In this document: piece by piece, positions 767 through 18,454 of the stretch
How positions within the stretch are numbered: the stretch's first letter is position 1
Layout: each line of letters opens with the position of its first letter
Virus genome (UHGV): UHGV-0237303
DNA length: 18,454 bases
Origin: a virus
Reading direction: 5' to 3' (one strand)
Position numbers and translations under genes: made by a program
The notes under the pieces: generated by a model
The model's database searches: none
What the model was told of the DNA's origin: nothing
The model's input: only the letters and a program-made list of their open reading frames with translations

Positions 767-768
767 CA

Positions 769-3118: not shown

Positions 3119-3696
3119 GCGCAGAACTCATGCGACTGCTGAGCAATATCATCCGCACCGGGATCATCTCTGAAGTTGATGAGAAGTCCTGGCGCGTGCG
3201 CGTTCGCAGCGGCGAACTGGAAACAGGCTGGTTGCGCTGGAACACCACGCGCGCGGGAGCCTTCAATGTGTGGCTGCCACCATCACCAGGCGAACAGGTG
3301 GTAATTGCCTGCATTGGCGGCAACCCGGAAACCGCCATGATAATTGGCAGCCTGTGGAGTGATGCCAATCCGGCCCCCGGCAAAAGCCTGAAAGAAATCG
3401 TGATCAGCGCGCCGGACGGCGCGGTGTTCCGCTACGACGCGGACGCAGGCGCACTGAGCGCCAGCGGCATGAAAACGGCCACTTTACAGGCATCCGTCAG
3501 CGTGAAACTGGACACGCCCGTCGTGGAATGCACAAACCTTCTGAGAACGGCGACGCTTGACGTCACAAAAGGGGGAAAGATGAGCGGCAATATCACGCAC
3601 AGCGGCGGCGATTTCACCTCAAACGGCATCACAGTGCATACGCATAAGCACGGTGGCGTTAAAGGTGGCAGCGATTCGACAGGAGGCCCGCAGTGA
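3115..3696 (+). CDS. V: Baseplate spike/assembly protein (P2 gpV-like)
   Basis: 193 aa; GTG start overlapping S stop; Gly/Ser/Thr-rich C-terminus ending HTHKHGGVKGGSDSTGGP, typical of V/gp5-like spikes; followed by W, J, I. Confidence 0.75.
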   Translation: MSAELMRLLSNIIRTGIISEVDEKSWRVRVRSGELETGWLRWNTTRAGAFNVWLPPSPGEQVVIACIGGNPETAMIIGSLWSDANPAPGKSLKEIVISAPDGAVFRYDADAGALSASGMKTATLQASVSVKLDTPVVECTNLLRTATLDVTKGGKMSGNITHSGGDFTSNGITVHTHKHGGVKGGSDSTGGPQ

Positions 3697-4043
3697 CAAC
3701 CCGCTACACAGGAATGAATCCGGACGGGACGGGAAACCTGAACGATATGGAGCACCTGAAACAGTCAGTCAGGGACATCCTGATCACCCCGCTGGCAAGC
3801 CGGGTTATGCGACGGGAATATGGCAGCCTTGTGCCTGATTTGATTGACGAACCCATGAATAACACAACTCGTCTGCAATGCATGAGTGCTGCCGTGATTG
3901 CGCTGACACGATGGGAACCCCGTATTGCCCTGGACGCCATCGACGTTGTCTGGAAGGCAGGAGGCCGCGCCGGGGTGACGCTGTCGGGCACTGTCATGCA
4001 GACCATGCAGAATGTTGAATTAACCATCACGCTGAGAGAGTAA
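3693..4043 (+). CDS. W: Baseplate protein (P2 gpW-like, gp25 family)
   Basis: 116 aa (P2 W about 115 aa); start overlaps V stop; canonical position between V and J. Confidence 0.75.
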   Translation: MTTRYTGMNPDGTGNLNDMEHLKQSVRDILITPLASRVMRREYGSLVPDLIDEPMNNTTRLQCMSAAVIALTRWEPRIALDAIDVVWKAGGRAGVTLSGTVMQTMQNVELTITLRE

Positions 4044-4046
4044 ATC

Positions 4047-4943
4047 ATGCCTGCTGTTGACCTTTCCCAGTTACCGGAACCCGCCATCATCGCGGAGCCT
4101 GATTTTGAGGCAATTCTGGCTGACACAAAGGCCATGATGATTGCGTCCTATCCTGCCGAACAGCGTGAAGCCGTCTCCGCCGCGCTGGAGCTGGAATCGG
4201 AACCCCTGAACGTTATCGCTCAAACCATGTCTTTTCGTGAAATGCTGTTACGTCAGCGGGTTAACGAGGGCGCACGCGCCTGCATGTTAAGCCACGGTTC
4301 AGGGACAAACCTGGACAACCTCGCGGGCAATATGAACACAAAGCGCCTGGTTATCACTCCGGCAACGGATACCACCGACGCGGTGATGGAGAGCGACACC
4401 TCGCTGAGATTGCGGGCGCAACGGGCGTATGACGGCCTGAGTGTTGCTGGCCCGTCAGGTGCATACGAGTATTTTGCACGCAGCGCCAGCGGTCTGGTGC
4501 GTGATGCGCGGGCCATCAGCCCGTCTCCGGCCTGTGTGACGGTTTCCATCCTGTCCACTGAAGGCGACGGCACAGCAACGGAGGCGTTGCTTAATACCGT
4601 TCGCGCCGTTCTGAATGCAGAGGATACCCGCCCGGTGGCCGACCGCCTGACCGTACAGAGCGCCAGAATCGTGACATGGCGGCTGAATGCAAAACTGTAC
4701 TTTTACCCCGGCCCGGAATCCGAACCTATTCTGGCCGCGGCTGAATCGTCGTTCAGGAAGTGGCTGGCTGAGCAGGGGCTTATCGGTCAGGACGTGGCGT
4801 TGTCCGCCATTGCTGCCGCACTGCATGTGCACGGTGTGCAACGCGTGGAGATAATCGAACCCACACAGAATATGGCCATCAGCGACATACAGGCGGCGCG
4901 CTGTGAGTCATTCACCATCAGCGAAGGTGGACGCAATGAGTAA
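4047..4943 (+). CDS. J: Baseplate protein (P2 gpJ-like, gp6 family)
   Basis: 298 aa (P2 J about 302 aa); canonical V-W-J-I order. Confidence 0.75.
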   Translation: MPAVDLSQLPEPAIIAEPDFEAILADTKAMMIASYPAEQREAVSAALELESEPLNVIAQTMSFREMLLRQRVNEGARACMLSHGSGTNLDNLAGNMNTKRLVITPATDTTDAVMESDTSLRLRAQRAYDGLSVAGPSGAYEYFARSASGLVRDARAISPSPACVTVSILSTEGDGTATEALLNTVRAVLNAEDTRPVADRLTVQSARIVTWRLNAKLYFYPGPESEPILAAAESSFRKWLAEQGLIGQDVALSAIAAALHVHGVQRVEIIEPTQNMAISDIQAARCESFTISEGGRNE

Positions 4944-5544
4944 TTCGTTGTTACCACCATCAGCCAGCAATTTCATGCGTTGTGCCGAAGCCGTCGGAAC
5001 ACGCATTACAGACATTCCGGTAGACCTCAACACGCTGTGGTCGCCGGACACCTGCCCGGTGCATCTGCTGCCTTATCTCGCCTGGGCGTTTTCCGTTGAC
5101 CGCTGGGATCGCAACTGGCCGGAAGAGACAAAGCGACAGGTGATTCGTGATGCATGGCTGATACACCGACACAAAGGGACCATCAGCGCACTGCGAAGAG
5201 CCGTGGAGCCTCTCGGCTACCTGATTGAAGTAAAGGAGTGGTGGCAACTCAACGAGGAGCCGGGAACATTTCGCATTGTTGTCGGAGTACTTGATCAGGG
5301 CATCACCGATGAAATGTATCAGGAACTTGAGCGCCTTATTGCGGATGCAAAACCAGTAAGTCGCCATCTGACGGGGCTGGCGATCAGCCTGAGTGTGAAC
5401 GGAAAGATTTTCGTTGGTACGGGATGCTATCACGGCGATGCCCTGACGGTTTATCCCTACACCCCGGAGTCCATTATTGTCGAAGGGGATTATTTCCCTG
5501 CCCCAGCCATTCATTTAATTGATAATCTGAGAGTAAACGCATGA
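4936..5544 (+). CDS. I: Baseplate/tail protein (P2 gpI-like)
   Basis: ATG at 4936 overlaps the J stop (ATGAGTAA); 202 aa; stop overlaps the H start. Confidence 0.7.
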   Translation: MSNSLLPPSASNFMRCAEAVGTRITDIPVDLNTLWSPDTCPVHLLPYLAWAFSVDRWDRNWPEETKRQVIRDAWLIHRHKGTISALRRAVEPLGYLIEVKEWWQLNEEPGTFRIVVGVLDQGITDEMYQELERLIADAKPVSRHLTGLAISLSVNGKIFVGTGCYHGDALTVYPYTPESIIVEGDYFPAPAIHLIDNLRVNA

Positions 5545-7034
5545 CAGTGAAATACTACGCCATTCTGACTAATCAGGGCGCGGCACGACTGGCTAACGCG
5601 ACGATGCTCGGCAGTAAGCTGAATCTGACGCAAATGGCCGTTGGTGATGCAAATGGTGTGTTACCAACACCAGACCCTGCACAAACAAAACTGATTAACC
5701 AGAAACGCATTGCACCGCTGAATCTTCTGAGTGTTGACCCTAACAATCAGAGCCAGATTATTGCGGAGCAAATCATCCCTGAAAACGAGGGAGGATTCTG
5801 GATCCGTGAGATTGGTCTTTATGATGATGAAGGTGTACTCATTGCGGTGGCAAACTGCCCGGAAACGTACAAACCGCAGTTGCAGGAAGGCAGTGGACGC
5901 ACCCAGACTATCCGCATGATTCTGGTTGTCACGAACACCGAAGCTATCACGCTGAAAATCGACCCGTCTGTGGTTCTGGCAACCCGCAAATATGTGGATG
6001 ATAAAATCTCAGAGCACGAACAGTCACGACGTCACCCGGACGCCTCGCTGACCGCAAAAGGTTTTACTCAGTTAAGCAGTGCAATTAACAGTGAATCAGA
6101 AACACTGGCCGCAACACCGAAAGCGGTTAAGGCTGCATATGACCTGGCTAACGGGAAATATACCGCCCAGAACGCCACCACTATACAAAAAGGGATTGTT
6201 CAGCTCAGTAGCGCCACGAACAGCAAGTCTGAAACGCTGGCAGCGACACCAAAAGCTGTTAAGGCGGTAATGGATGAAACGAACAAGAAAGCACCATTAA
6301 ACAGCCCGGCACTGACCGGAACGCCAACAACACCAACAGCGCCACAGGGGACTAATAGTACCCAGATCGCAAGCACGGCTTTCGTTATGGCCGCGATTGC
6401 CGCACTTGTAGATTCGTCACCTGATGCACTGAACACGCTGAACGAACTGGCTGCGGCGCTGGGCAATGACCCGAATTTTGCGACCACCATGACTAACGCG
6501 CTTGCGGGTAAGCAACCGAAGGATGCCACCCTGACGGCGCTGGCGGAGCTTGCTACATCAGCAGATAAACTCCCATATTTTACAGGGGCAGATCGTGCCG
6601 CGTTAACCGCGTTGACAAGTGTTGGACGTGCCATTCTTGGTAAAACCAGCACTCAGGGAGTTCTTGATTACCTTGGTTTGGGAGAAGCGGCGAAAAGGGA
6701 TGTGGGTACAGGAGAAAATCAGATACCGGATATGTCAGCCTGGAAAAGAAATCCGAGTTCTAATCGCTGGAGAAAATTGCCTGATGGAACCATCATTCAA
6801 ATGGGAATATCAGCATCAGGGCCATTAGGCTCACCTGTAAATATCACCCTGCCGATATCTTTCAGCAATACCAATTATTGTGTTGTTGCATCGTACGATA
6901 ATGCACGGTCAGGTGTGTCAACAATGGTTAGTTTTGCAGCATTACCTGTTTCACCATCGCAATTTTCCCTGATGTCATCTGTGACTGAGCAAGGAATAAA
7001 TCCTTTTGCTTACTGGATTGCTTTTGGAGATTGA
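5541..7034 (+). CDS. H: Tail fiber protein (P2 gpH-like); the last ~120 codons lie inside the invertible segment
   Basis: 497 aa; conserved N-terminus MTVKYYAILTNQGAARLANA...; duplicated fiber motif SETLAATPKAVKA; the crossover site is embedded at codons 374-382 (VLDYLGLGE). Confidence 0.8.
   Translation: MTVKYYAILTNQGAARLANATMLGSKLNLTQMAVGDANGVLPTPDPAQTKLINQKRIAPLNLLSVDPNNQSQIIAEQIIPENEGGFWIREIGLYDDEGVLIAVANCPETYKPQLQEGSGRTQTIRMILVVTNTEAITLKIDPSVVLATRKYVDDKISEHEQSRRHPDASLTAKGFTQLSSAINSESETLAATPKAVKAAYDLANGKYTAQNATTIQKGIVQLSSATNSKSETLAATPKAVKAVMDETNKKAPLNSPALTGTPTTPTAPQGTNSTQIASTAFVMAAIAALVDSSPDALNTLNELAAALGNDPNFATTMTNALAGKQPKDATLTALAELATSADKLPYFTGADRAALTALTSVGRAILGKTSTQGVLDYLGLGEAAKRDVGTGENQIPDMSAWKRNPSSNRWRKLPDGTIIQMGISASGPLGSPVNITLPISFSNTNYCVVASYDNARSGVSTMVSFAALPVSPSQFSLMSSVTEQGINPFAYWIAFGD
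6661..6686. repeat. Left 26-bp invertase crossover site (hix/gix/cix-like), inside H
   Basis: TTCTTGATTACC-TT-GGTTTGGGAGAA: two imperfect 12-bp inverted half-sites around a 2-bp core; inner arm plus core (TTGGTTTGGGAGAA) is identical to the reverse complement of 8466..8479; closely resembles the remembered hixL sequence TTCTTGAAAACCAAGGTTTTTGATAA. Confidence 0.65.
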
Positions 7035-7037
7035 TAA

Positions 7038-7457
7038 ATGGACAGATACTTCTATTCACAAAAAGAAAATGGTTTTTTTACCGATTTAAATAAAGCACCT
7101 TCAGATGCTGTTGAGATAACCACGGATGAATGGCTGTCACTACTGGATGGTCAGGATAATGGCATGAAAATAGTCAGCAATCAGGAGGGATATCCGGTTT
7201 TGACAGAGCAACCACCTTTATCAAAAGAAAACCTTATTGCATTAGCAGAGTTGAAAAAAGGAAAACTTATTAATGAAGCCAACGAGCACATGAACAGCAG
7301 GCAATGGCCTGGTAAAGCGGCTATTGGTCGTCTGAAAGGTGAGGAACTGGCGCAATATAATTTGTGGCTGGATTATCTGGACGCACTGGAGCTGGTCGAT
7401 ACTTCCAGTGCGCCAGATATTGAATGGCCTACGCCTCCGGCAGTTCAGGCCAGATGA
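7038..7457 (+). CDS. Tail fiber assembly protein (P2 gpG/Tfa-like), cassette currently in the expressed orientation
   Basis: 139 aa, 3 nt downstream of the H stop; C-terminus ...LDYLDALELVDTSSAPDIEWP is shared with the opposite-strand Tfa (...LDYIDAVTVTDTSTAPDIIWP). Confidence 0.75.
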   Translation: MDRYFYSQKENGFFTDLNKAPSDAVEITTDEWLSLLDGQDNGMKIVSNQEGYPVLTEQPPLSKENLIALAELKKGKLINEANEHMNSRQWPGKAAIGRLKGEELAQYNLWLDYLDALELVDTSSAPDIEWPTPPAVQAR

Positions 7458-8022
7458 TATCCGGCGCGGTGCTGGTATCTGTTACCGTCACCGCGTCAAT
7501 GTAATCCAGCACGGCGTTAAGTCGGGTTGTTTCTGCCTGCGCCAACTTCCGTCCGGCCTGCAATTTCAGTTGAATCAGACTAATGGAAGCCATTGCAGTA
7601 TCAATCAGTGACTGACGTTGTGCTTCTGCCGCGTCTACTGCGGCGCTATGCTGTGCCTCGGTATCCGTCACCCATTTCTCACCATCCCATTTATCGTATG
7701 GCGTTAACGGTGAAAGCGTGACATAACCGTCTTTGATGGCACCGATATAATCCACTGTAACAGCTGCGCCATTTTCTGTTGAGTAAACAGTCTCATTGCG
7801 ATGGTCTTCTTCATGGCTCCATCCCTTACCCGTAAATACTGCCACTTTTCCCGGAATGTTTTCGCCAGGGTCAATACCAGTGGAACAGGCGGGCATACTT
7901 ACGCCAGTATTAATATATTCATCAGACCAGCCCGTATACTCAGATGTTTCAGCATCATAATAAAAACAACGCATATCGCCCGGCACTGTAGCCAGCCCAT
8001 TTTCATCAAAAACAGGTTTCAT
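7429..8022 (-). CDS. Alternative tail fiber assembly protein (Tfa'), silent orientation
   Basis: 197 aa on the minus strand; conserved Tfa C-terminus; converges on and overlaps the + strand tfa by about 29 nt; start overlaps the stop of the alternative fiber cassette (TAATG). Confidence 0.7.
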   Translation of the reverse strand: MKPVFDENGLATVPGDMRCFYYDAETSEYTGWSDEYINTGVSMPACSTGIDPGENIPGKVAVFTGKGWSHEEDHRNETVYSTENGAAVTVDYIGAIKDGYVTLSPLTPYDKWDGEKWVTDTEAQHSAAVDAAEAQRQSLIDTAMASISLIQLKLQAGRKLAQAETTRLNAVLDYIDAVTVTDTSTAPDIIWPELPEA

Positions 8023-8477
8023 TATTTAGCCCTCACCAGAAAGTTAAATGCAATATTTCGCGGTCTGACAGCAACAAAATTCACACCATCACCCACAGAG
8101 TTACTGGTGAAATTAAATCGTGAAAATCCTGGCTGATTTCCGGCGATGCCATCATGAAAGTTAATTGCGTGTCCCGCACCTTCGCCTATATTCCCGGCAA
8201 ACTGAGAAAAGTTTGTAGCTGCCTGCCAGCTTAATAATTCACGACCACCGTCTGCACCTCGCCCGTCATCCCAGATACGAATGAAATCACCGCGGGCTTC
8301 AGGTAATACCAGCGAAGGAAACACTTTCGCCAGCACAGGATAATCAGTGGCAGAGAATTTCGCGCCGTTGAACTTCAAAAACACCATACTGGACCAGCTG
8401 TCGATTACAGTATTTGGCATTGCAGCGGACGGCCAGAAGAACGGAACGCCAATAGCTGGAGAACCTTCTCCCAAACC
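8022..8477 (-). CDS. Alternative tail fiber C-terminal cassette (H'), no start codon of its own; expressed only after inversion fuses it to the constant part of H
   Basis: Minus-strand frame reads GLGEGSPAIGVPFFWPSAAM... from the crossover core at 8478/8479, with the same GLGE junction as the current H; the track ORF 8022..8519 extends further 5' only because the frame stays open across the site. Confidence 0.65.
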   Translation of the reverse strand, partial: GLGEGSPAIGVPFFWPSAAMPNTVIDSWSSMVFLKFNGAKFSATDYPVLAKVFPSLVLPEARGDFIRIWDDGRGADGGRELLSWQAATNFSQFAGNIGEGAGHAINFHDGIAGNQPGFSRFNFTSNSVGDGVNFVAVRPRNIAFNFLVRAK

Positions 8478-8491
8478 AACGTTTAAGAAAA
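8466..8491. repeat. Right 26-bp invertase crossover site, inverted relative to the left site
   Basis: + strand TTCTCCCAAACC-AA-CGTTTAAGAAAA; reverse complement TTTTCTTAAACG-TT-GGTTTGGGAGAA has inner arm and core identical to the left site; lies about 55 nt upstream of the invertase start. Confidence 0.65.
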
Positions 8492-8546
8492 TGCAGAGAT
8501 TACGGCTAACTGGCATCATCCCCGGTTTTTATTCAGGGGATCCATC

Positions 8547-9146
8547 ATGCTTATTGGCTATGTCCGCGTATCAACAAATGACCAGAATACAGAATTGCAG
8601 CGTAACGCGCTGGAGTGCGCAGGATGTGAACTGATTTTTGAAGATAAAATCAGCGGAACGAAATCAGCCAGACCGGGATTGAAAAAACTGCTCAGAACGC
8701 TATCAGAAGGAGATACGCTGGTTGTCTGGAAGCTGGACAGACTGGGCAGAAGTATGAAACACCTGATCACGCTTATTGAGGAATTGCGGGAAAAAGGTGT
8801 TAATTTCCGTAGTCTGACGGACAGCATTGACACATCAACACCCATGGGGCGTTTCTTTTTTCACGTCATGGGAGCTTTAGCCGAAATGGAACGTGAATTA
8901 ATTGTAGAGCGTACACTGGCCGGGCTGGCAGCAGCACGCGCACAAGGACGCATTGGCGGACGTCGCCCGAAGTTGACAAAAGAACAACACGAGCAAATAG
9001 CGAGGCTGATTAAAAACGGTCATGACAGGAAACAACTGGCGATCATTTACGACATCGGCATATCGACGATTTATCGTTATCACCCTGTAGGCGATATACA
9101 GGCTGAAGAAACAACTAGGCAGACTCAGGAAAATGAAAACCGCTAA
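8547..9146 (+). CDS. Serine recombinase, DNA invertase (Gin/Hin/Pin/Cin family)
   Basis: 199 aa; N-terminal catalytic motif MLIGYVRVSTNDQ with the active-site serine, resolvase/invertase core (GDTLVVWKLDRLGRS), C-terminal helix-turn-helix; adjacent to the invertible segment. Confidence 0.85.
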   Translation: MLIGYVRVSTNDQNTELQRNALECAGCELIFEDKISGTKSARPGLKKLLRTLSEGDTLVVWKLDRLGRSMKHLITLIEELREKGVNFRSLTDSIDTSTPMGRFFFHVMGALAEMERELIVERTLAGLAAARAQGRIGGRRPKLTKEQHEQIARLIKNGHDRKQLAIIYDIGISTIYRYHPVGDIQAEETTRQTQENENR

Positions 9147-9165
9147 TCTGACCATTAGCGGTTTT
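9135..9165. terminator. Bidirectional rho-independent terminator between convergent invertase and U
   Basis: Perfect 12-bp stem AAAACCGCTAAT / ATTAGCGGTTTT with 6-nt loop CTGACC; A/T runs on both sides so it can serve both strands; overlaps the invertase stop codon. Confidence 0.55.
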
Positions 9166-9172
9166 GCGTTAA

Positions 9173-9667
9173 TCAAAACAGCCCTTTAACGGAGCTGGCC
9201 GCGCTGTTAAGGGATGATGTGACCTTATCTTTGAAGCCGGACAGCATATCACTGAACGATGAGGATTGCAGGCGCTCCCGCAAATCCTCATCACAGCGTT
9301 CAAGAGTCAGTGAAAATTCTATCTTTTTCGCCTTACCGTAGCGATCAAACTCGGAGCGGGTCGTATTCGTTCCGGTCAGGACATACATGCCGTAAATCTG
9401 CCCGACACCATCAATCAGAGGCCAGGGGCGTCCTGTATATGCCTGCGTGGTCAGCAACGAAAGCGATACTTCGCCACCTGTAATTTCAGGATAAAGCACA
9501 CCAGAAAGAACGATGCGATCATCGCCTGCCCCGATATACTGCCAGCTTGCTGAACGGTTAACGCGTTCATTTTTCACATGCCGCCAGCTTTTGTTTTGCT
9601 GTAACTGCTGATGCGGCAGCGTGCGCAGCTCAAAAACAAACATGCCGTAGATCATCATCATGGCCAT
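9173..9667 (-). CDS. U: Tail protein (P2 gpU-like)
   Basis: 164 aa (P2 U about 159 aa) immediately downstream of the tape measure gene on the minus strand. Confidence 0.65.
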   Translation of the reverse strand: MAMMMIYGMFVFELRTLPHQQLQQNKSWRHVKNERVNRSASWQYIGAGDDRIVLSGVLYPEITGGEVSLSLLTTQAYTGRPWPLIDGVGQIYGMYVLTGTNTTRSEFDRYGKAKKIEFSLTLERCDEDLRERLQSSSFSDMLSGFKDKVTSSLNSAASSVKGLF

Positions 9668-9673
9668 GACTCC

Positions 9674-12517
9674 TCAATCTTTATCGTAAAAACTGCCACG
9701 CCCGGCACGGGCGCGCCGTTCCATTTCTGCCCTGACCATTTCACCGACCAGTTTCGCCAGTTCGCGGGGATTCTGTGTAACAACGTTATGCAGATGAACA
9801 TGAATTTCACCGCCAAATCCGGAAGCAACAGGCTCCCGGTTACGGGAAGTTGCAGGAACTGATGCCACTGGCGATCGTATGGCCTCTGCCACCGGGCGGG
9901 AGCTGGCCGCAACAACAGGGACCAGCGCCGGAGGCAGCGGAGCCGGAACCACAGGTGTGATATTAATTGCGGGGGCAGGCTTACTGACCTGCGCAATCTT
10001 CCGCTCCTGCCACTCCCCACGAACAGCAAGTGCGCGGGGCAGGTTCTTAAAGACAATATCGCCGGGGCCAATACGTTTTTTCGTCTCATCAACCAGCTTA
10101 CCTGTGTTATCAGCAATTTTGCTGAGTCTGCGTAGCGTACCGGTATTGCTGTCTGTGAGCGGTTTGTTGTCTTTGGGTTTATCACCTCCGGTGCCATTGC
10201 CATTTTCCACAGGCTTCGGCGGATTGATTTTCGCCAGGTCCCCCTGAAGCAAGGCAACCTTGTCCTGAAGAATGGCCGCACGCTGTGCGTCTTCGATTTT
10301 CTTGCGCGCCCTTTCCGCTTCATCCGGAAGCACACCGAGCTTTTCAAGTATCCACGCTAGCGTATCCAGCAACATTTTTGCAGGTGTCAGAACAAGTTGT
10401 AACGCACCGCCAAGAACGTTACCGAATGTCTCGCCAGCACTGGTACATTTATCCAGCGTTTCCTTGCTGGACTCCATCGGTGACAGCAGCGATTTAAACC
10501 AGTTAAACACCTGGCTGATCCCACTCCCGATTGCGTCAAAAACAGGACCAAACCGTTCAAAGGTTTCGCGCAACGGGGTCAGCCTTTCCATAATCCCGCT
10601 GAACACCCCGGCAAAAAATGCCCTGATGGGATCCCAGTATTTCCAGATAAGGACGGCAGCTCCGGCAAGCGCAGCCACGATAAGACCAACCGGACTGAAC
10701 AGCGCCCCGATAGCGCCTCCCAGTAAAGAAACGGAACCCGTCACCATTCCCCACAGTGCTGGCAGGACCCTGACAGCATTCATTGATCCGGTCAGGAGAG
10801 AAAAACCAAGGCGCAGTTTTGCCAGCGGACCAGCAAGCACACCAATAGCCAGCGACAACGAGCCAACCGTTGCAGTCATTGCCAGCAACGCACCGCCTGC
10901 TATCAGTAGCTGGCGCGTCAGTGCCGGATGGGCCTGCGCCAGCGCCGTCACCCTTGATACCACCCGCGTGAGCCACTGCGTGACAGAACGCAGCGGACCG
11001 TCAATCAGATCTGCAATGCGGATGCGCAACCCTTCCCATGCACTGCCGAGTGATTTCAGATCGCCGTCAAGGTTGTTGGCCATGACCTTTGCTGTGCGTT
11101 CAGCCTCACCGCGCGCGCCTTCAAGTTCTTTTCTCAGTTTAGGTAAGGAACCGTCACCCGCTGCATCAACGAGCGCCATAAACGATGTGAAAGCCTCTTC
11201 TCCGGCAATGTCCTTAAAGAACGATACCCGGTCAACTTCCCCGTATTTGCGGGTGGCTTTATAAAGGTCGGCCAGCACATCCTCCATCGGGCGCATTTTG
11301 CCGTTCGCGTCAGAGACTGCCACACCAAGCTCTTTCAGCGCCTCTGCTGCTGCCTTTGGCGGTGATGCCAGACGAGCCAGGCTGGCACGCATTGCCGTCC
11401 CAGCATCACTCCCTCTGATACCCATATTCGCCAGCACGCCCGCCATCGCTGCGGCCTGCTCCAGCGATATTCCCAGCTTACCCGCCACCGGACCTGCATA
11501 TTTCATGGTTTCGCCCAGTGCGCGAAGGTCAGTGTTGGTACGGGTAAATGCTGCGGTGAGCGTGTCGCCAACCCGGTCCATCTGGTCAGCAGAAAGGCCG
11601 AACTGCGTCAGGATATTTGAGCCAATATCCGCCGTCTCGCCGAGATCCATGCCGCCAGCCGTTGCCATGCTCAGCACGCCCGGAAGCGCAGCCTGAATGG
11701 CCTGCGGAGTGAAGCCAGCCATTGCAAGAAATGCCTGCCCACTGGCGGCATCGCCTGCGGTGAACTGCGTTTCAGAGCCAAGTTTTAACGCCTGCTCACG
11801 CAGCGCCTTAAACTGCGGGCTGTTCTGGTCGATTCGCGTCAGTGCCTGAACGCGGGACATCTCTTTGCCGAACCCGATCGCAGGCTGCAAAAAACGCCCG
11901 GCAGCATAGCCGCCAGCCGCTGCCGCACCAATTGCCAGCGCACCACCTGTTTTCAGTTTTCCCGCGGTTTCCTGCACGCGCGAATACCGCTCACGCGCCC
12001 GCGTTACACGCGCAAGCGCCTGCCGTTCGCGTTCAAGCTGGTTGTTGTACTGTTCGGTGCGTCTGATGGCCTGCTGGATGGTGTTATCGCTGCCTGTCAG
12101 GGAAATGCCGTGGCGTTTCAGCTCTCCGCCAAGCTCCCGCATTTTCTGAATTTCCCGTGTGCGCGATTCATTCAGGCGTTCAAGCCGGGTGCTTAACTGC
12201 TGCATCAGCTTTTGTTGTTTTTCGCTGAGCACTGTACCCGTGCGTTGTAACTGATTAAGGGCGTTAAGCTGGCGTCGCGCTTTCACGATACCCGCATCCG
12301 CTTTACTGACAGCGTCGCGGGCGCGCTCAAATGAACGCGCCTGACGCTCGAGATTTTTGATCGCCCCCTGCGTTCGCTGGATGGAGTCACCAAACTGCCC
12401 CATCAGGCGGCGGGCGTTTTCGGCAGGTCGGGTCAGCCTGTCAACGGCGCTGAAAGCGACCCGGATATCAAGAGTCTTCATTGTCTGCATTCCCGCTGCG
12501 AAGTGCCGCCCGCTCAC
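9674..12517 (-). CDS. T: Tail tape measure protein (P2 gpT-like)
   Basis: 947 aa, largest ORF; Ala/Gly/Gln-rich, long helical N-terminal part, hydrophobic Gly/Ala-rich central stretch; GTG start; position after E/E'. Confidence 0.8.
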   Translation of the reverse strand: MSGRHFAAGMQTMKTLDIRVAFSAVDRLTRPAENARRLMGQFGDSIQRTQGAIKNLERQARSFERARDAVSKADAGIVKARRQLNALNQLQRTGTVLSEKQQKLMQQLSTRLERLNESRTREIQKMRELGGELKRHGISLTGSDNTIQQAIRRTEQYNNQLERERQALARVTRARERYSRVQETAGKLKTGGALAIGAAAAGGYAAGRFLQPAIGFGKEMSRVQALTRIDQNSPQFKALREQALKLGSETQFTAGDAASGQAFLAMAGFTPQAIQAALPGVLSMATAGGMDLGETADIGSNILTQFGLSADQMDRVGDTLTAAFTRTNTDLRALGETMKYAGPVAGKLGISLEQAAAMAGVLANMGIRGSDAGTAMRASLARLASPPKAAAEALKELGVAVSDANGKMRPMEDVLADLYKATRKYGEVDRVSFFKDIAGEEAFTSFMALVDAAGDGSLPKLRKELEGARGEAERTAKVMANNLDGDLKSLGSAWEGLRIRIADLIDGPLRSVTQWLTRVVSRVTALAQAHPALTRQLLIAGGALLAMTATVGSLSLAIGVLAGPLAKLRLGFSLLTGSMNAVRVLPALWGMVTGSVSLLGGAIGALFSPVGLIVAALAGAAVLIWKYWDPIRAFFAGVFSGIMERLTPLRETFERFGPVFDAIGSGISQVFNWFKSLLSPMESSKETLDKCTSAGETFGNVLGGALQLVLTPAKMLLDTLAWILEKLGVLPDEAERARKKIEDAQRAAILQDKVALLQGDLAKINPPKPVENGNGTGGDKPKDNKPLTDSNTGTLRRLSKIADNTGKLVDETKKRIGPGDIVFKNLPRALAVRGEWQERKIAQVSKPAPAINITPVVPAPLPPALVPVVAASSRPVAEAIRSPVASVPATSRNREPVASGFGGEIHVHLHNVVTQNPRELAKLVGEMVRAEMERRARAGRGSFYDKD

Positions 12518-12997
12518 GCCAGCTAACCACTTCGCCGGGCGTCATCATGAAGATTTCGGCGGGCGACCAGTTAAAAATAACGGCAATATCTGCCACAAAG
12601 TCTTCTATGTGCTCAAAGCACACAACCGTGATCAGGCTTCCGTCGCCTGTTCGTTCTTCCCGCCAGAGTCCGCACCGCTCAAAAAATTTACGGCAACCAC
12701 ACATAACTGAATAAAGTCACGGGATGCCATTTTTTTGATCGTCACTTCATCCAGTCGCGGTGATGTCACGCGTGACAACAGCGTAAACATGGATTCCGCT
12801 TTCAGATTCAGCACATCAGACAGCGACAAATCTCGCAGAGATCCAGCCTGCTCAATAGCCCCGGTGATCTCCACATACGTGATTTTTTCGCCGCCTCGCT
12901 CAATGGATTGGGTAAGTTTTACGCCACGCTCACTGGTTTCTTTCACAGTGTCAGCAACTACCGTGTTTTCGGTATCGATGTTTTTCGTCTCTTTCAT
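12468..12997 (-). CDS. E+E' fusion product made by programmed -1 ribosomal frameshift
   Basis: Zero frame reads ...AAT TTT TTG (N104 F105 L106); the -1 frame ORF 12468..12704 reads straight through the same heptamer (...KFFERCGLW...); predicted fusion about 170 aa. Confidence 0.6.
12632..12997 (-). CDS. E: Tail assembly chaperone (P2 gpE-like), zero-frame product
   Basis: 121 aa between tail tube and tape measure genes; contains a TTTTTTG slippery heptamer near its 3' end with a -1 frame ORF running on past it. Confidence 0.7.
   Translation of the reverse strand: MKETKNIDTENTVVADTVKETSERGVKLTQSIERGGEKITYVEITGAIEQAGSLRDLSLSDVLNLKAESMFTLLSRVTSPRLDEVTIKKMASRDFIQLCVVAVNFLSGADSGGKNEQATEA
12680..12686 (-). 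other. Slippery heptamer T TTT TTG for the E/E' -1 frameshift
   Basis: Located by codon position from the ORF track (E codons 104-106); same heptamer as reported for P2 E/E+E' (recalled from memory). Confidence 0.6.
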
Positions 12998-13051
12998 CAG
13001 GAAACTCCTTTCAGTCAGAGGCGACGCACTGCGCCGCCTGCATATTACTTA

Positions 13052-13564
13052 TCAGCCAAGCCCAAGCGCGGAACGGATGCGATCGGGCACAATGTCCTTG
13101 CCGTCCTTCCGGTAAATGAAGTTCAGCAGGTCAATCTCCCACAACGGACGATCGTTAACACTCAGCTTGTAGTAGGTGTTTTTAATGGCGTAAGTGTGTG
13201 ATGTGGCTTCGCCCTGTTTGGCTTCCCCCATATCAATTTCCGTCACACGTCCGCGCATTTCGACTTCATACAGGTCGCTTTCTGCATCGGTGTAGTATTC
13301 ACCCGCAAAACGCAGCAGCGTGCCGTCAATCGTGCCGCCATACTTAAGGAACAGCTCACGAACTGCGCCCCCCATGACAAAGCTCGCATCAAGCGCGGAG
13401 TCGTCCAGACCGAGATCAATACTTACCGCCCCCATCATGCCACCACCCCGGTAGCTGTCGGTTTTGCGCGTCAGCTTAGGCAAAGTGACGGACGTCACCT
13501 TACCCACTTCGTTTTCACCATCCACAAACAGCGTAAAAAAGCGAAGATGTTTTGGCACAGCCAT
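13052..13564 (-). CDS. FII: Tail tube protein (P2 gpFII-like)
   Basis: 170 aa (P2 FII about 172 aa) directly downstream of the sheath gene; start overlaps the sheath stop. Confidence 0.8.
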   Translation of the reverse strand: MAVPKHLRFFTLFVDGENEVGKVTSVTLPKLTRKTDSYRGGGMMGAVSIDLGLDDSALDASFVMGGAVRELFLKYGGTIDGTLLRFAGEYYTDAESDLYEVEMRGRVTEIDMGEAKQGEATSHTYAIKNTYYKLSVNDRPLWEIDLLNFIYRKDGKDIVPDRIRSALGLG

Positions 13565-14748
13565 CAGGCACCTCCCAGCACCGCAAATGCGGGTTCAAAG
13601 TATTCATCAGTAAACGTCTGGTAAAGCTCCATGTCTTCCAGTGGCGGAACGGGCGTATATTTGTAGCGAATACGCACACGCCCCTGACGTAAATCCGTGG
13701 TGCTGTTATCCACCACGTCATACCAGCACTCCGCGCCAATCAGTTTCCCGGCAGTCACCAGTGAATCCAGTTTTGCCCTGATGGCACTGATAACATCCTT
13801 CACGTTCGCAGGCGTCAGTGGACTGTCGATGGTTTCAAACTGCGCTTCCGCAATTGAATCAGCCAGCACCTGTGCGGTTCGGGTATACACCTCAAAAATG
13901 TAGGCGTTCGTTTCCGGTGTGCGGTTGCCCCAGAAGCGGAACCCGTTGCGACGAATAATGGTCGTGATTTCTTTGTTGTTGAGGCTGTTGGCATCGCTGT
14001 CTTCGGCCTGCAACGACCAGAACACATGCCTCGACATCCCCAGCACATTTTTAACCGGAACGTTGGACAGCGATTTGTGCCAGCCCTGCTCATGGTCAAT
14101 GTACGCACGAAGGCCGCACGCATAAGCAGGCGCGGGGAACGTTTCGTTTTCGCCACTTTTCGGGTTGTAGGCGATGAAGTCCGGCCATAAGAGCATCACT
14201 TCACGTTCGTTGAATTTCTGGCGGTAGGTAATCGCTTCAGCCATCGTGTTACAGCCGTGACATGAGGCATACACAAATGCGCGCAGTTTACCCGCAATCA
14301 CGCACAGGGATTTTGTCACCGCCTCCGTGTCCAGCTCCGGCGCGGCCAGAATACGCGGACGGTATCCGATGCTTTCATCCTGCTCTGCAACAAGCAGCGC
14401 ATACATCCCCGTATAGCTGCCGTCATCCTCAGAACCACCGATAACCAGTTGATCCTGCGTCTTTTCGTCTTCTTCTTTGTGTTCAGCCACGCGAACGACG
14501 ATCACCTTTGTGCTCACCTGGTCTGCGATGGCCTTAAGCGCACGATAAAGCGTCCCCGTTGTTCCGCATTTTCCCAGCACGTCATTGACGCGGGTCAGCA
14601 GTGTGGGCTTGTTCAGCGGGAACAGCTTCGCGTCCGCATCATCCGCCGTTGCCACGATACCGATAACGCTGGAATCAACATCGTTAATCGCTGTTACCAG
14701 GTCGGTATTTTCCGTAACACGGGCACCATGAAAACGAGTTTCACTCAT
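13564..14748 (-). CDS. FI: Contractile tail sheath protein (P2 gpFI-like)
   Basis: 394 aa (P2 FI about 396 aa); AAGGGG Shine-Dalgarno upstream of the ATG; first gene of the minus-strand FI-FII-E-T-U block. Confidence 0.85.
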   Translation of the reverse strand: MSETRFHGARVTENTDLVTAINDVDSSVIGIVATADDADAKLFPLNKPTLLTRVNDVLGKCGTTGTLYRALKAIADQVSTKVIVVRVAEHKEEDEKTQDQLVIGGSEDDGSYTGMYALLVAEQDESIGYRPRILAAPELDTEAVTKSLCVIAGKLRAFVYASCHGCNTMAEAITYRQKFNEREVMLLWPDFIAYNPKSGENETFPAPAYACGLRAYIDHEQGWHKSLSNVPVKNVLGMSRHVFWSLQAEDSDANSLNNKEITTIIRRNGFRFWGNRTPETNAYIFEVYTRTAQVLADSIAEAQFETIDSPLTPANVKDVISAIRAKLDSLVTAGKLIGAECWYDVVDNSTTDLRQGRVRIRYKYTPVPPLEDMELYQTFTDEYFEPAFAVLGGA

Positions 14749-14904
14749 AGCTTCAGCCCCTTGTATCCGTTAAATGATTCGGCAACAATCATCACCCACC
14801 ACGCGCGTAATCTCACCCCTGCGCCGTTCTCCCGCCACGGCGACAACAAAAAGCAGTAACCCCCTCCGCACGCACATGCGACCATGCCACACAGGGAGGG
14901 AGCA

Positions 14905-16015
14905 GATGACCGACACCACCATGCAATTGCTCAGTCAGGGCACAGACCCCGTGAAAATGCCGGATTTTGATATTCTCGCGGAGGGTAAAACGCTGTCAGG
15001 CGTGGCAGAGCGCCTGATGAGCCTGTCACTGACCGACAACCGGGGATTTGAAGCGGACCAGCTCACCATCACGCTGGATGATGCGGATGGTCAGTTGCAG
15101 CTACCGCCACGGGGCGCGCGCCTGACGGTTCTCATTGGCTGGAAAGGAGAACCGCTGACAGAAAAAGGCACTTACATTGTTGATGAAATCGCTCACGAAG
15201 GACCGCCGGACAGGCTGACTGTTTCAGCCAGAAGCGCAGATTTTCGGGATGAATTTAACGTTAAACGTGAGGTGTCCTGGCATGATGTGACCGTTGAGCG
15301 TGTGGTATCCGCCATCGCTCATCGGTACGGTCTGAAACCGCAAATCAGCGAAATGCTGATGGATATCGAAATCGACCACGCCGACCAGACCGAAGAAAGC
15401 GACATGTCCTTCCTTACGCGCATGGCGGAAATGCTGGGCGCAATCACCACGGTAAAAAGCGGCAATCTGTTATTCATCATGCCAGGTGGTGGCGTGAACG
15501 CACAGGGCCAGCCGTTGCCCTCGTTCGCCATTACACGCAGCAGTGGCGATCGCCATCAGTTCCGCATTGCTGACCGCGAGGCGTATACGGGTGTACGCGC
15601 CTACTGGCTTGATCTTAATTACGGGAAAAAGAAAAAAGTCAGCGTGAAACGCCGCAAACCGCCAAAACCCAAAAAGGAGAAAAGCAGCAGCCGTGAAGGT
15701 GATTATATGGAAGGCGCGGAAGGCAATGTGTTTGTGTTACGCAAGACTTATCAGAACGAGCAGGCAGCAAGACGCGCAGCGGCGGCAAAGTGGCAGCAGC
15801 TACAACGCGGAGCCGCATCATTCTCCATCATGCTGGCACGCGGACGCGCAGAACTCTACCCCGAAATGCATGGCACGGTAACAGGCTTTAAAAGCGAGAT
15901 TGATAATCAGGACTGGATTATTGCAAAAGCCGAGCACACCATTGATAACAGCGGCTTTACCACACAGCTTGAGCTTGAGGCAAAAATCCCGGAATGGATA
16001 GCAGAAACAGAGTGA
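14905..16015 (+). CDS. D: Late control / tail protein D (P2 gpD-like)
   Basis: ATG at 14905 with GGGAGGG Shine-Dalgarno (internal Met of track ORF 14774..16015); 370 aa (P2 D about 387 aa); lysine-rich central linker (KKKKVSVKRRKPPKPKKEK). Confidence 0.7.
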
Positions 16016-16135: not shown

Positions 16136-17158
16136 TTAATACGCATTTAATTTAAATTTGTATTTGCCTTCTATGTAATGGATAAATTCAATTATGCTTT
16201 TTTCTATCGCATCTAATATATGAATATATCCATCCCGATTTAAGGTCCTATCCAACTCAAAGTGATGAACTATCCCATGTCTATATTGTATGATTTCAGA
16301 AATTCGATTCTCAAGAAAATCAACTGATTTTCCAATTCTTTTTTTCTTATAAAGAATCGCTCTCACATCTATATCCAGCCACTCTTTATATGCTTTGTTT
16401 AGGTGAGTTAAGTTTTGAAAAGTGTAATTTCTTGCAATAACACTTTCTATTGAAATATTTCCTTTCTCTATCTCAAGCAGAATATCAAAATCAACTTTTT
16501 GCTTATACGATGTTCTTTTTGCTATTGCGAAAGGATCGTACTTTATAAGTATTTGAAAAGCTCTAGAGAAAAAATATTCAAACATAGCAACCGCAAAAGG
16601 TACTAATCCATTATATATAACTCTACTGGGATCCATACATTGCATGTAATCAAAGTATTCGGATAAGCCGCCATCTTCCGGTAGGTTTAATTTAATAGAA
16701 GGTTCAGGTAAGGCATGTTTAACAGCGGAAATCTCATGATGGACATGATTAAATATTGAAGAAATGCCGCGACTGATCGGACTACTAGAATCCTTCCATA
16801 GAGGAGCGTACCTATTTTTCCCATAATCACCTATAAGTGTTCCACCAAAAAGACTCCTTGCGCCTTTTAGAACATCATTAAGCATTTTTACATCATGCCA
16901 ACTAGCGCTATATAAATTACGCACATGCAATGCCCATTTATTACCAGATATGTGTAGTTCGTCATTTGAAACAGGATATATATCAGCCGAAACTCCATCT
17001 GTAGATTTGAAGTCCGTATCATCAAACCAAGAGTAATTCAACGTTCCTTGGGGCCATTCCCACAAATGTTTACACCTTTTAAAACCTAAATTTTCAAGGT
17101 AATTTTTAAGTTCGTTTCTAGTTGCTTTTTTAGGGTACAGCGTTATATCTCTTCCCAT
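16136..17158 (-). CDS. Hypothetical 340-aa protein on AT-rich acquired DNA; candidate accessory/defence protein (possible HEPN-like R-x4-H motif)
   Basis: Single long minus-strand ORF with AT-rich, Ile/Lys/Asn/Tyr-rich codon usage unlike the flanking phage genes; AGGTGA Shine-Dalgarno about 8 nt upstream of the ATG; no resemblance to any P2 structural protein I can recognise; C-terminal YRHGIVHH. Confidence 0.6.
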   Translation of the reverse strand: MGRDITLYPKKATRNELKNYLENLGFKRCKHLWEWPQGTLNYSWFDDTDFKSTDGVSADIYPVSNDELHISGNKWALHVRNLYSASWHDVKMLNDVLKGARSLFGGTLIGDYGKNRYAPLWKDSSSPISRGISSIFNHVHHEISAVKHALPEPSIKLNLPEDGGLSEYFDYMQCMDPSRVIYNGLVPFAVAMFEYFFSRAFQILIKYDPFAIAKRTSYKQKVDFDILLEIEKGNISIESVIARNYTFQNLTHLNKAYKEWLDIDVRAILYKKKRIGKSVDFLENRISEIIQYRHGIVHHFELDRTLNRDGYIHILDAIEKSIIEFIHYIEGKYKFKLNAY

Positions 17159-17349
17159 GCTTTATTCACCTGATATACAATATTTTAAATTTTAACTATT
17201 ATGAACGTATGAATTTTCACATTGGATGTATGGAAGTTCAACAACTATTGAAAGTTCAATTTTCACTCTTCGCACAGAGCGAGCTGTTAGTTGGAATTAG
17301 GGATCGTACAATCTAGAATAGCGGCAACACCACGTTAAGGGAGGTCGCT

Positions 17350-17610
17350 ATGTTCCGTTGTCCGCTTTGTGGCGCATCTGCCCGTATCCGCACAAGTCGT
17401 CCGGAAAATGATTCAAACACCGTGCGGCAAAAGTATTACCAGTGTAACAATCTGGAATGCGGCATATGCTTCTCAACACTGGAAGCTTTCCATAAATTCA
17501 CATCGAAACACGCCTCCGGCGTTCACTCTTCAGAAGGTATCCCGTGGCATGAGCTACCAGCTTCACACAGGGGAAACAATCAGATGAGTTTGCCTTTACC
17601 TCAGAATTAA
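17350..17610 (+). CDS. ogr: Ogr/Delta-family zinc-finger late transcription activator
   Basis: MFRCPLCGASARIRTSR...KYYQCNNLECGICF matches the remembered P2 Ogr pattern MFHCPLC...ARTSR...YHQCQNVNCSATF (C-x2-C...C-x4-C); strong AAGGGAGG Shine-Dalgarno; 86 aa versus 72 aa in P2. Confidence 0.8.
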   Translation: MFRCPLCGASARIRTSRPENDSNTVRQKYYQCNNLECGICFSTLEAFHKFTSKHASGVHSSEGIPWHELPASHRGNNQMSLPLPQN

Positions 17611-17800
17611 CAAGCAGAATTGCCGGAGTAACAAAAAAGCGATAGATTACGCGCGGGTGCCTTTCGGCTGATGGTCGGAGGGAATACCCGAAGGCCAGAT
17701 GTGGAAAGGCCCCGGAAAACACTTTTGTTTAACCGAGGCCCTAACCATCTACCCTAAGCAAGTGAAAGGTTAGCGCCTCTCCGGAAAAGGAGCAAGTGCT

Positions 17801-17941
17801 ATGTCGCAAAAATCGCTTACAGCCATCACGTTCTGCGTGACGGTAATCCTCATCATCTGGATGTTGCACGGTTCGCTGTGCGAAATACGGATGAGTTTCT
17901 GGGGAGCGGAGTTTGCGGCGTTCTTACAGTGTAAGCAGTAA
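17801..17941 (+). CDS. Hok/Gef-family type I toxin (small membrane peptide), 46 aa
   Basis: MSQKSLTAITFCVTVILIIWMLHGSLCEIRMSFWGAEFAAFLQCKQ: single TM helix with C-x-T and the family-typical SLCEIR motif; AAGGAG Shine-Dalgarno 8 nt upstream; below the 60-aa cutoff of the ORF track. Confidence 0.65.
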   Translation: MSQKSLTAITFCVTVILIIWMLHGSLCEIRMSFWGAEFAAFLQCKQ

Positions 17942-17950
17942 GGAAACCGC

Positions 17951-17972
17951 GACGGGGGAGTAATCCCCCGTC
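17951..17972 (+). ncRNA. Stable 3' stem-loop directly after the hok-like ORF (candidate mRNA 3' structural element / terminator)
   Basis: Perfect 9-bp stem GACGGGGGA / TCCCCCGTC with GTAA loop starting about 10 nt after the stop codon; not followed by a clear U-tract. Confidence 0.4.
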
Positions 17973-18202
17973 AATCGGTTGCCAGGGTAAGGTCGATAAG
18001 GCACCCTATCTCACGGCTCTAAATGCAAAAATTCCATGAAACTGTGGGATTTTTGCATCACTACTGATACAGATCTGACCTTCTTTATGTCTCACTCTAT
18101 ACCAGCTAATCAATTGACACTTATCAATAAAAAAAAATCTGATAAAATCAAAATGTTTTGTAACAAATATCAACTCGTATTGATCCAAAGGAGGCGGATT
18201 AC

Positions 18203-18454
18203 ATGGCATTAATCAAATGTCCTGAATGCCAGAAAGAGGTGAGCGATTCAGCATTGTATTGCCCTGCTTGCGGTAAACAAATAAAAAAACTTAAGCGTTC
18301 ATTTTTTGGAAAGCTCATTAAGTGGATTTTTATATTATTTAATATTTTTATGATCTATACGCTTTTAGTTGGACTGGGAGGCACTAGTGAAATAATAAAT
18401 AATGCTACATCCGATGCCGAAAAAACCGGTGCAGTTATTGGTACAGGCTTAGGT
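18203..18454 (+). CDS. Zinc-ribbon membrane protein of unknown function, 5' part only (open to the window end)
   Basis: ATG at 18203 with AAGGAGG Shine-Dalgarno about 8 nt upstream; 84 codons without a stop to the window edge; N-terminal CPEC-x10-CPAC zinc ribbon, then a TM helix (LIKWIFILFNIFMIYTLLVGLGG); AT-rich; absent from the track because it has no stop in the window. Confidence 0.5.
   Translation, partial: MALIKCPECQKEVSDSALYCPACGKQIKKLKRSFFGKLIKWIFILFNIFMIYTLLVGLGGTSEIINNATSDAEKTGAVIGTGLG

Follow-up and report, generated by a model that had tools for sequence, protein, structure and literature searches.

DrpB (YedR) of E. coli is a septal inner-membrane cell-division protein of 100 amino acids (aa), with both termini inside, two transmembrane (TM) helices and a loop of ~20 aa, which in multicopy suppresses delta-ftsEX; it was reported without homologues beyond close enteric relatives and without a conserved domain (PMC7648144). 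Multicopy DrpB also activates Rcs in a manner that is independent of RcsF and needs the periplasmic domain of RcsC, and among four point mutants only T89A lost this activation (PMC11709261). A second family of relevance here, VasI/TagO, is associated with secretion systems of type VI (T6SS), and the only literature mention of the phage VasI-like gene described here is a table entry, without experiments, for ORF1 of phage phiSM (PMC6456863, Magaziner et al.). Here we compare these proteins with a locus at the 3' end of UHGV virus genome UHGV-0237303, a DNA of 18,454 nucleotides that is referred to throughout, at its full length, as the window. The window breaks off inside a gene for a protein with a zinc ribbon and two TM helices, hereafter ZnR, which in near-identical records is followed by a gene for a secreted VasI-like protein. 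We consider it very probable, for both statements jointly, that the two genes form an uncharacterised cargo (“moron”) cassette at the attachment-site (att)-proximal end of a P2-like prophage, and that the ZnR hairpin and the VasI-like module are functionally linked, as indicated by their conserved adjacency and by natural fusions.

The island consists of exactly two genes, lies inside a P2-like (Peduoviridae) prophage and ends ~1.1 kb past the window, with no further downstream partners. Many E. coli chromosomes, and also “Escherichia phage 500465-2”, match window positions 17600-18454 at 99.4-99.8% identity. In NZ_CP065607, which is 99.8% identical over this interval, a 20-bp direct repeat, TTTTCATCAACAAGGATTTT, is found on both prophage ends. 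The left copy, attL, adjoins the pdxB start and the integrase, while the right copy, attR, is located 1.38 kb 3' of the ZnR start codon, just upstream of flk. K-12 carries the empty pdxB/flk site, and in the alignment with K-12 host identity starts at TTTTCATCAACAAGG, right on the start codon of pdxB. Past the VasI-like gene there is a perfect hairpin (AACACAAAGCCCG-TGAAAA-CGGGCTTTGTGTT), then attR and then host flk. The overall layout is pdxB, followed by attL-int-C-cox-...-A-portal...tail-D-(340-aa orphan)-ogr-hok-ZnR-VasI-like-attR, followed by flk, and a separate complete lysis cassette (holin, endolysin, LysB/LysC) is present elsewhere in the prophage.

The original prediction, which was made from the window alone, had taken this interval to be non-core DNA between ogr and the attachment site. 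The att repeat, the position of attR past the cassette and the empty K-12 site all agree with that assignment and place the region inside the prophage, not in host chromosome beyond its boundary. Following the complete gene and its neighbours up to att in near-identical records likewise returned two genes, the hairpin and attR. The cassette has these properties of a P2-like moron: a location between conserved phage genes and att, a deviant GC (guanine plus cytosine) content of 0.357, compared with 0.509 in the phage core and 0.545 in the host flank, and presence/absence polymorphism.

The ZnR open reading frame (ORF) is a real, conserved gene. In near-identical records it comprises 110 codons, or 333 nt with the stop codon (L001 12604-12936; L002 10604-10936), and thus continues for 26 codons beyond the window, which disposes of the concern that a stop a few codons on would expose it as spurious. 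It is annotated in the database as “zinc ribbon domain-containing protein”, and its product matches phrog_6586 at 7e-43. The translation contains the CPEC-x10-CPAC zinc ribbon exactly as first described, with a TM helix and a Gly-rich segment after it, and Pfam Zn_Ribbon_1 (PF13240) matches at 31.2 bits (E 1.8e-7) against a gathering score of 25. After the ribbon comes a basic stretch, KQIKKLKRSFFGK, in keeping with the positive-inside rule, and positive charges are found both before TM1 and after TM2. An AlphaFold2 (AF2) model contains a small ribbon and two long helices (residues 34-66 and 71-105), with a mean pLDDT (predicted local distance difference test score) of 76. From these features we infer a cytoplasmic location for both the zinc ribbon and the LT(K/R)PK motif at the C terminus, and a periplasmic one for the loop of ~20 residues.

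Homologues of ZnR are numerous. We found 69 at E<=1e-3, and a profile search of 1.84 billion representatives returned 345 cluster representatives at E<=1e-10. Among 30 homologues with identities of 40-87% to the reference, 19 residues are invariant, including C6, C20, C23, N47 (in TM1), W92, G95, G100, T106 and P108, and 18 more are conserved at >=90%, among them C9 and D96. Identity of the hairpin protein remains at 50-60% between gamma-, alpha- and beta-proteobacteria, often in chromosomal contexts unrelated to phages. In the E. coli and phage records that were examined the ORF appears intact; in Pantoea stewartii (L049), by contrast, the match falls into two pieces. The precomputed Pfam accession PF28000.1 is attached to the ZnR/hairpin members P0013, P0016, P0018, P0034 and P0050, and the protein may already have a curated family.

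The second gene starts 4 nt past the ZnR gene and encodes a protein of 297 aa that carries the database annotation “TagO”. It begins with a Sec signal peptide (cleavage VLPVHA/ATEH), continues with three C-x11-C repeats that end in RLxCYD and are modelled as helix-turn-helix hairpins, and closes with a C-terminal beta domain of VasI/IalB fold (~155-297), for which the AF2 pLDDT means of 10-residue blocks are ~81-95. Relatives contain one, two or three of the hairpin repeats. Pfam VasI (PF11319) matches the protein at 89.6 bits (E 2.6e-25) against a gathering score of 26.5. In contrast, the VasI/TagO equivalog model TIGR03360 gives 75.9 bits against a cutoff of 124.2, and Pfam IalB (PF06776) gives 20.6, just below its gathering score of 22.1. 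We infer that the protein is exported, is probably stapled by disulfides and docks on or near the ZnR hairpin. In PHROGs both cassette genes fall in families of unknown function. When profiles of the two families were searched against the sequences of solved structures, nothing scored below E 0.2, and a BFVD fold search returned only uncharacterised phage proteins.

Conserved adjacency links the two genes. In six enterobacterial genera the pair keeps its order and its location, D-ogr-(hok)-ZnR-VasI-att. It is found in the E. coli phages 500465-2 and PhiR44_2, Citrobacter phage phiSM, Xuanwuvirus P884B11 and Klebsiella phages (73 and 64% aa identity for ZnR and the VasI-like protein, respectively), as well as in Pectobacterium aroidearum (73 and 42%), Klebsiella sp., Raoultella terrigena and Enterobacter asburiae, where the two genes overlap by 4 nt. 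Of 5426 complete E. coli genomes, 240 (~4%) contain the pair, 237 of these at >=80% of query length, and 9 of the 242 places of the cassette are on plasmids. Although it is present in E. coli, Klebsiella, Citrobacter, Enterobacter, Raoultella and Pectobacterium, the names given to its products are only domain-level or misleading.

Natural fusions provide the strongest link. The profile search of 1.84 billion representatives revealed proteins that lack the zinc ribbon and in which the two-TM hairpin continues into a third TM helix and then a VasI domain. Fusion P0280 matches Pfam VasI at 1.4e-9 and a custom VasI profile at 108 bits, and P0303, of the same architecture, scores 40 bits with the VasI profile. 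With three TM segments in every one of the hairpin-VasI fusions, the VasI domain is placed on the periplasmic side, consistent with the signal peptide of the separate phage protein. Further hairpin fusions bear different periplasmic domains.

Profile comparisons indicate that the ZnR hairpin is likely a remote homologue of DrpB, a connection that is new, as is that made by the hairpin-VasI fusions. The NCBIfam DrpB model (NF038392) matches ZnR residues 28-109, nearly full length, with E 1.4e-4 and 22.1 bits, and matches 27 of 30 family members at E<=0.01 (best E 5e-7), with none above the curated cutoff of 50; ZnR is therefore no DrpB equivalog. For the reverse comparison, a deeper hairpin profile of 154 sequences, with decoy and shuffle controls, was built after a weak hhalign result. 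This profile matches E. coli DrpB residues 12-92 at 24 bits (E 6.8e-6 in a proteome-sized search). DrpB was the only non-family match among 3324 decoy ORFs, the next best reaching 9 bits, and 2000 shuffled versions of DrpB reached at most 8 bits. ZnR also has a DrpB-type topology, with two TM helices, termini predicted to be N-in/C-in, a loop of ~20 aa and conservation in the distal part of TM2. In the alignment, DrpB T89, the Thr of YTRPR, corresponds to the invariant T106 of LT(K/R)PK.

Given these properties, what might the cassette do? It is not a nucleic-acid-targeting defence system, nor is it a T6SS component in the ordinary sense. We tentatively propose, as a possibility that stops short of being probable, that it acts on the envelope of the lysogen via a DrpB-like mechanism, with a protective or fitness payoff. 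According to this proposal, the cassette would be expressed from the prophage in the lysogen, and the hairpin would, like DrpB, engage a conserved inner-membrane envelope machine via its TM2/LT(K/R)PK face. Candidate machines would be the divisome and peptidoglycan synthesis or, in enterics, the sensor kinase RcsC. The VasI-like protein would serve as the periplasmic arm of the hairpin, which in the single-chain fusions would be tethered by the third TM helix. The envelope state of the lysogen (Rcs and capsule, septal peptidoglycan) would then shift, and the lysogen could gain either protection, from T6SS attack or incoming phages, or better fitness when the envelope is stressed. The cassette ties together three poorly understood proteins, namely DrpB, T6SS VasI/TagO and Bartonella IalB, and the hairpin-VasI fusions together with the T89/T106 alignment make it experimentally tractable.

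Several observations weigh against this proposal. E. coli members of the hairpin family score ~20-22 bits with the DrpB equivalog model, compared with its cutoff of 50, and when the family was compared by hhalign with DrpB as a single sequence, the probability was only 15%. The DrpB phenotypes are multicopy effects, and the physiological role of DrpB is unclear (PMC11709261). Expression in the lysogen is deduced from the position of the cassette and a weak promoter match. The hairpin family reaches far outside Enterobacterales, into bacteria without Rcs, and Rcs therefore cannot be what it targets in general. Several E. coli records show frameshifts at poly-T tracts of the VasI-like gene. Finally, ZnR occurs without a VasI-like gene in Dickeya prophages and in Pantoea and Haemophilus chromosomes, and VasI-like genes occur without ZnR in other phages, including lone domains of ~165 aa in lambdoid and other temperate phages; each gene being found without the other, the partnership is not obligate. 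A more general form of the envelope proposal appears doubtful to us. It would make the DrpB-superfamily hairpin and the VasI/IalB-fold domain a widespread, hitherto unrecognised two-part envelope system, either fused or encoded by two genes, that P2-like phages would have mobilised to shield lysogens from envelope-puncturing devices (contractile tails and T6SS). If true, this would provide the first molecular role for T6SS TagO/VasI, IalB and DrpB.

The frameshifted VasI-like genes lie at L001 12941-13833, L106 7382-8292 and L107 6382-7292, with the ZnR gene intact in all three records. The tracts concerned are a T7 run at codons 5-6 (FDAARGOS_946) and a T8-9 run at ...DRFFSPTF... (the enterotoxigenic E. 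coli (ETEC) plasmid and strain E66). The frameshifts may represent decay, sequencing error or slipped-strand phase variation.

Among the alternatives to an action on the lysogen envelope, we regard direct superinfection exclusion, similar to that by Imm and Sp, as rather unlikely. The hairpin would stop incoming phage DNA from crossing the inner membrane and the VasI-like protein would block the tail tip or its peptidoglycan hydrolase, with no host signalling involved. A small membrane protein beside a secreted one, in an AT-rich island at a prophage end with other cargo adjoining, is the typical anatomy and position for such a function; VasI/IalB-fold proteins are frequent in temperate phages and occur in T4-like phages as well; and with a weak HEPN-like candidate in the D-ogr slot, the region seems to gather host-protective cargo. 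However, there is no PADLOC match, no named Pfam, PHROGs or NCBIfam family ties it to exclusion proteins already known, and an identity of 50-60% across gamma-, alpha- and beta-proteobacteria, often in non-phage chromosomal contexts, fits a conserved host target better than rapidly evolving phage ones. A literature search for zinc-ribbon exclusion proteins retrieved nothing relevant, and one by protein accession retrieved no mentions. We consider it very unlikely that the VasI-like protein and its membrane partner supplement or modulate the host T6SS as accessory factors. The Pfam VasI match above the gathering score and the NCBI name TagO point in this direction, as does the listing of phiSM ORF1 as “T6SS VasI family protein, virulence” (PMC6456863). 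Yet the protein falls below the TIGR03360 cutoff and shares only 26% identity with the TagO of the E. coli Sakai T6SS cluster (ECs_0222), no hairpin homologue is found inside that cluster, and no T6SS genes stand beside the cassette in any locus examined, the neighbours being ogr, hok, attR and flk. For T6SS TagO/VasI, too, a 2026 review gives the function as unknown (PMC13584744).

An equally small chance, in our estimation, attaches to a role in the phage's own lytic cycle, for example in lysis timing or in the passage of progeny or incoming genomes across the envelope. Small two-TM and periplasmic proteins are typical of lysis cassettes, and with D and ogr upstream on the same strand late read-through is conceivable. 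Nevertheless, the prophage already has its separate complete lysis cassette, the viable relatives P88 and Chuche lack the two genes and a Dickeya prophage has half of them, and the cassette is isolated by hairpins, differs in base composition and has no Ogr-type dyad upstream. It is also improbable, if slightly less so, that the cassette is hitch-hiking or decaying DNA without a current function in E. coli, perhaps captured beside att by aberrant excision. The poly-T frameshifts in L001, L106 and L107 would fit decay, and in Pantoea a chromosomal ZnR gene lies directly beside a P2-like integration site. Decay is, however, difficult to reconcile with the strong purifying selection evident in the 19 invariant and 18 nearly invariant positions of the 30 sequences, with a ZnR ORF that appears intact except in Pantoea stewartii and with a pair that is kept across genera; either phase variation or errors in sequencing homopolymers may explain the frameshifts. 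Action on the envelope of the lysogen, tentative as it is, remains the reading that we favour.

Comparison supports two separate cargo sites around ogr, as the original prediction had suggested, with the contents of the D-ogr and ogr-att slots varying independently among the prophages compared. The D-ogr slot is occupied here by an AT-rich orphan of 340 aa and in another E. coli P2-like prophage by an alpha/beta-hydrolase (L018 8204-8962), and it is without a gene in Dickeya, Pectobacterium and Enterobacter prophages and in E. coli E66. In the ogr-att slot, hok, ZnR and the VasI-like gene may each be present or absent, or a TM2-domain protein may stand instead; phages P88 and Chuche match only the ogr/hok part. 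The 340-aa orphan (window 16136-17158, minus strand, GC 0.336) shows a sub-threshold Pfam match to HEPN RiboL-PSP over residues 181-329 (E 1.2e-4, 22.5 against 28.4 bits) and no PADLOC, NCBIfam or PHROG match; it is a possible abortive-infection candidate. PADLOC-DB v2 gave no match at E<=1 for ZnR, the VasI-like protein or this orphan. P2-like phages have cargo hotspots at old/tin and Z/fun, and if the cassette does protect lysogens at the envelope, the ogr-att slot would be an additional one.

One variant of the ogr-att slot is seen in an E. coli P2-like prophage at tamB/ytfP (L018 6001-7126). There, ogr and hok are followed by a gene for a 98-aa protein with a CxxC-x10-CxxC zinc ribbon and a Pfam TM2 domain, which is convergent with a 250-aa VasI-like gene whose product is 43% identical to the present VasI-like protein. 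Slot and architecture match those of the present cassette, but the hairpin belongs to a different family. A cassette-bearing fragment was also identified on the 142-kb plasmid of ETEC-2265 (L106, NZ_CP023347.1, 5829-8292), with a partial ORF, ogr, hok, ZnR and a split VasI-like gene. It adjoins a group II intron and an integrase, so that movement of the cassette is not confined to intact prophages. The RefSeq “complete genome” of 500465-2 (L002, NC_049343.1) runs ~7 kb beyond attR (11980-19196) and there includes the host genes flk, yfcJ, fabB and mnmC and a transposase. These genes are therefore no cargo of the phage, and the record represents a prophage prediction that was wrongly trimmed.

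The start of the AT-rich island, as read from positions 16800-18454, lies 3' of a hok-like ORF (17801-17941) and a GC-rich hairpin (Table 1). In 300-nt windows the GC content drops past this hairpin from 0.53 to 0.32-0.40. Over 18000-18454 it is 0.354, against 0.541 in window positions 1-16000, and an A8 run occupies 18130-18137, so that the AT-rich turn with A-tracts described earlier after the hok-like locus is confirmed. Hairpins bound the cassette on both sides, one toward hok and one toward attR. The strong Shine-Dalgarno sequence of the original prediction is present as AAGGAGG, although at 18188-18194, one base from the 18189-18195 first given, with the ATG at 18203.

The promoter first suggested fared less well. 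It paired TTGACA (18114-18119) with GATAAAAT, and the spacing of 23 nt makes this pairing unconvincing; TTGACA and TAAAAT as one sigma-70 promoter were rejected as too far apart. A consensus scan instead pairs TTATCA with TG-n-TAAAAT (TGATAAAAT, 18140-18148) at 16 nt. The resulting promoter-like element, equivalent to L002 10522-10549, has 9 of 12 matches plus the TG and amounts to no more than agreement with the consensus; such sites occur in this region no more often than in shuffled sequences (3 observed, 6.5 expected). A search upstream of the zinc-ribbon gene (17941-18210) found no Ogr-type late-promoter dyad of the form TGT-N12-ACA, and by this criterion the cassette does not count as late. 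The neighbouring hok/mok-like locus (17801-17941, flanks 17635-18005) is ~84% identical to sequences in many Shiga toxin (Stx)-converting lambdoid phages. It is present in only some of the P2-like prophages that have the zinc-ribbon gene and is therefore a separate mobile module.

Table 1. Positions of the features at the ZnR locus (window coordinates unless a locus is named).
Feature	Position	Strand	Description
GC-rich hairpin	17950-17973	none	GACGGGGGAGTAATCCCCCGTC; terminator-like site, equivalent to L002 10351-10374; left edge of the AT-rich island
Promoter-like element	18121-18148	+	TTATCA (18121-18126), 16-nt A-rich spacer, extended -10 TG-n-TAAAAT (18140-18148)
Shine-Dalgarno GGAGG	18190-18194	+	8 nt before ATG 18203; read directly
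ZnR gene, first 84 of 110 codons	18203-18454	+	84 codons without a stop, translated as MALIKCPECQKEVSDSALYCPACGKQIKKLKRSFFGKLIKWIFILFNIFMIYTLLVGLGGTSEIINNATSDAEKTGAVIGTGLG; cut by the window end; full gene ends 81 nt past the window
C4 zinc ribbon	18218-18271	+	C6-P-E-C9 ... C20-P-A-C23 (CPEC-x10-CPAC); ribbon ~residues 4-26; predicted cytoplasmic
DrpB-like two-TM hairpin module	18284-18454	+	residues 28-110, of which 28-84 lie inside the window
TM1 of the ZnR hairpin	18308-18376	+	~residues 36-58
Periplasmic loop of the ZnR hairpin	18377-18433	+	~residues 59-77; motif SDAE(K/R)AGA
TM2 of the ZnR hairpin	from 18434	+	~residues 78-104, then C-terminal LT(K/R)PK
Upstream zinc-ribbon-TM genes	L026 4477-4977, L031 4284-4991, L037 4265-4987, L038 4290-4988, L039 4290-4988, L056 4460-4975		

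Within and outside the P2-like prophages, a recurring theme is a small zinc-ribbon hairpin protein beside an extracytoplasmic protein. In many non-enteric proteobacteria the ZnR gene is preceded by a gene for a second zinc-ribbon-TM-periplasmic protein, or is flanked by lipoprotein genes. The former arrangement was observed in Pseudoalteromonas, Photorhabdus, Ewingella, Brucella/Ochrobactrum and an Aeromonadaceae metagenome-assembled genome, where the second gene lies 10-25 nt upstream of the 110-aa gene and encodes a zinc ribbon, one TM segment and an extracytoplasmic domain of 130-200 aa without a Pfam match (Table 1). A Pfam scan of the neighbour proteins at the non-enteric loci returned only zinc ribbons and one DUF7424. 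These gene pairs may be another two-part version. In Pantoea (L010-L013, 6001-6333), a lone chromosomal ZnR gene is located between cueR and copA, and in one strain a P2-like prophage begins, integrase first, ~500 bp 3' of it (L012 6824-7846). This geometry would be expected if P2-like phages took up the ZnR gene by imprecise excision beside attB, which may have occurred.

VasI/IalB-fold proteins are frequent as uncharacterised cargo of temperate phages and are found in T4-like phages too. Photobacterium phosphoreum (L103 7001-8513) has a stand-alone VasI-like gene outside a T6SS cluster, ~500 bp upstream of a gene with an LprI domain (lysozyme inhibitor, PF07007). Hairpin fusion P0252 ends in what by eye is an LprI-like Cys motif, for which Pfam reports no LprI at E<=0.001. 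The C-x11-C spacing resembles that of the RLxCYD hairpin, and this resemblance hints at a possible connection with peptidoglycan hydrolases.

Several known systems share part of this architecture. T4 Imm and Sp offer an analogous layout, in which a small inner-membrane protein and a periplasmic protein, both phage-made, act on the envelope, and P22 SieA and HK97 gp15 occupy, by analogy, the same kind of temperate-phage cargo slot. These proteins differ in that the family libraries (Pfam, PHROGs and NCBIfam, with no direct pairwise comparison) provide no link, and in that the ZnR family is also common in chromosomes. Proteins that combine a zinc ribbon with a TM2 domain (PF05154) resemble ZnR in their CxxC-x10-CxxC motif, two TM helices, length of ~100 aa and position after ogr-hok and beside a VasI-like gene. 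The ZnR hairpin, however, has no significant Pfam TM2 match, and the genes are convergent there and tandem here.

T6SS VasI/TagO, represented by V. cholerae VCA0118 and Sakai ECs_0222, shares with the prophage VasI-like protein a signal peptide, the C-x11-C/RLxCYD hairpin and a beta domain with a conserved Cys pair. It has one hairpin repeat, whereas the prophage protein has three, and unlike T6SS TagO the prophage gene has a zinc-ribbon membrane partner and is not in a T6SS cluster. Bartonella IalB (PDB: 3dtd, PF06776) differs in that it has no Cys-hairpin repeats and is not phage-borne. DrpB and ZnR share a hairpin module of ~80 aa with predicted N-in/C-in termini and a periplasmic loop of ~20 aa, the motifs R-S-x-x-G-K-L-x-x-W-x-F before TM1 and T-R-P-(K/R) after TM2, and reciprocal profile matches. 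In contrast to ZnR, DrpB is chromosomal, has no zinc ribbon and no known periplasmic partner, and lacks two features conserved in the ZnR family, the polar pair N47/D96 within the membrane and the loop motif SDAERAGA. Whereas DrpB was published as limited to close enterics, the ZnR hairpin family spans proteobacteria.

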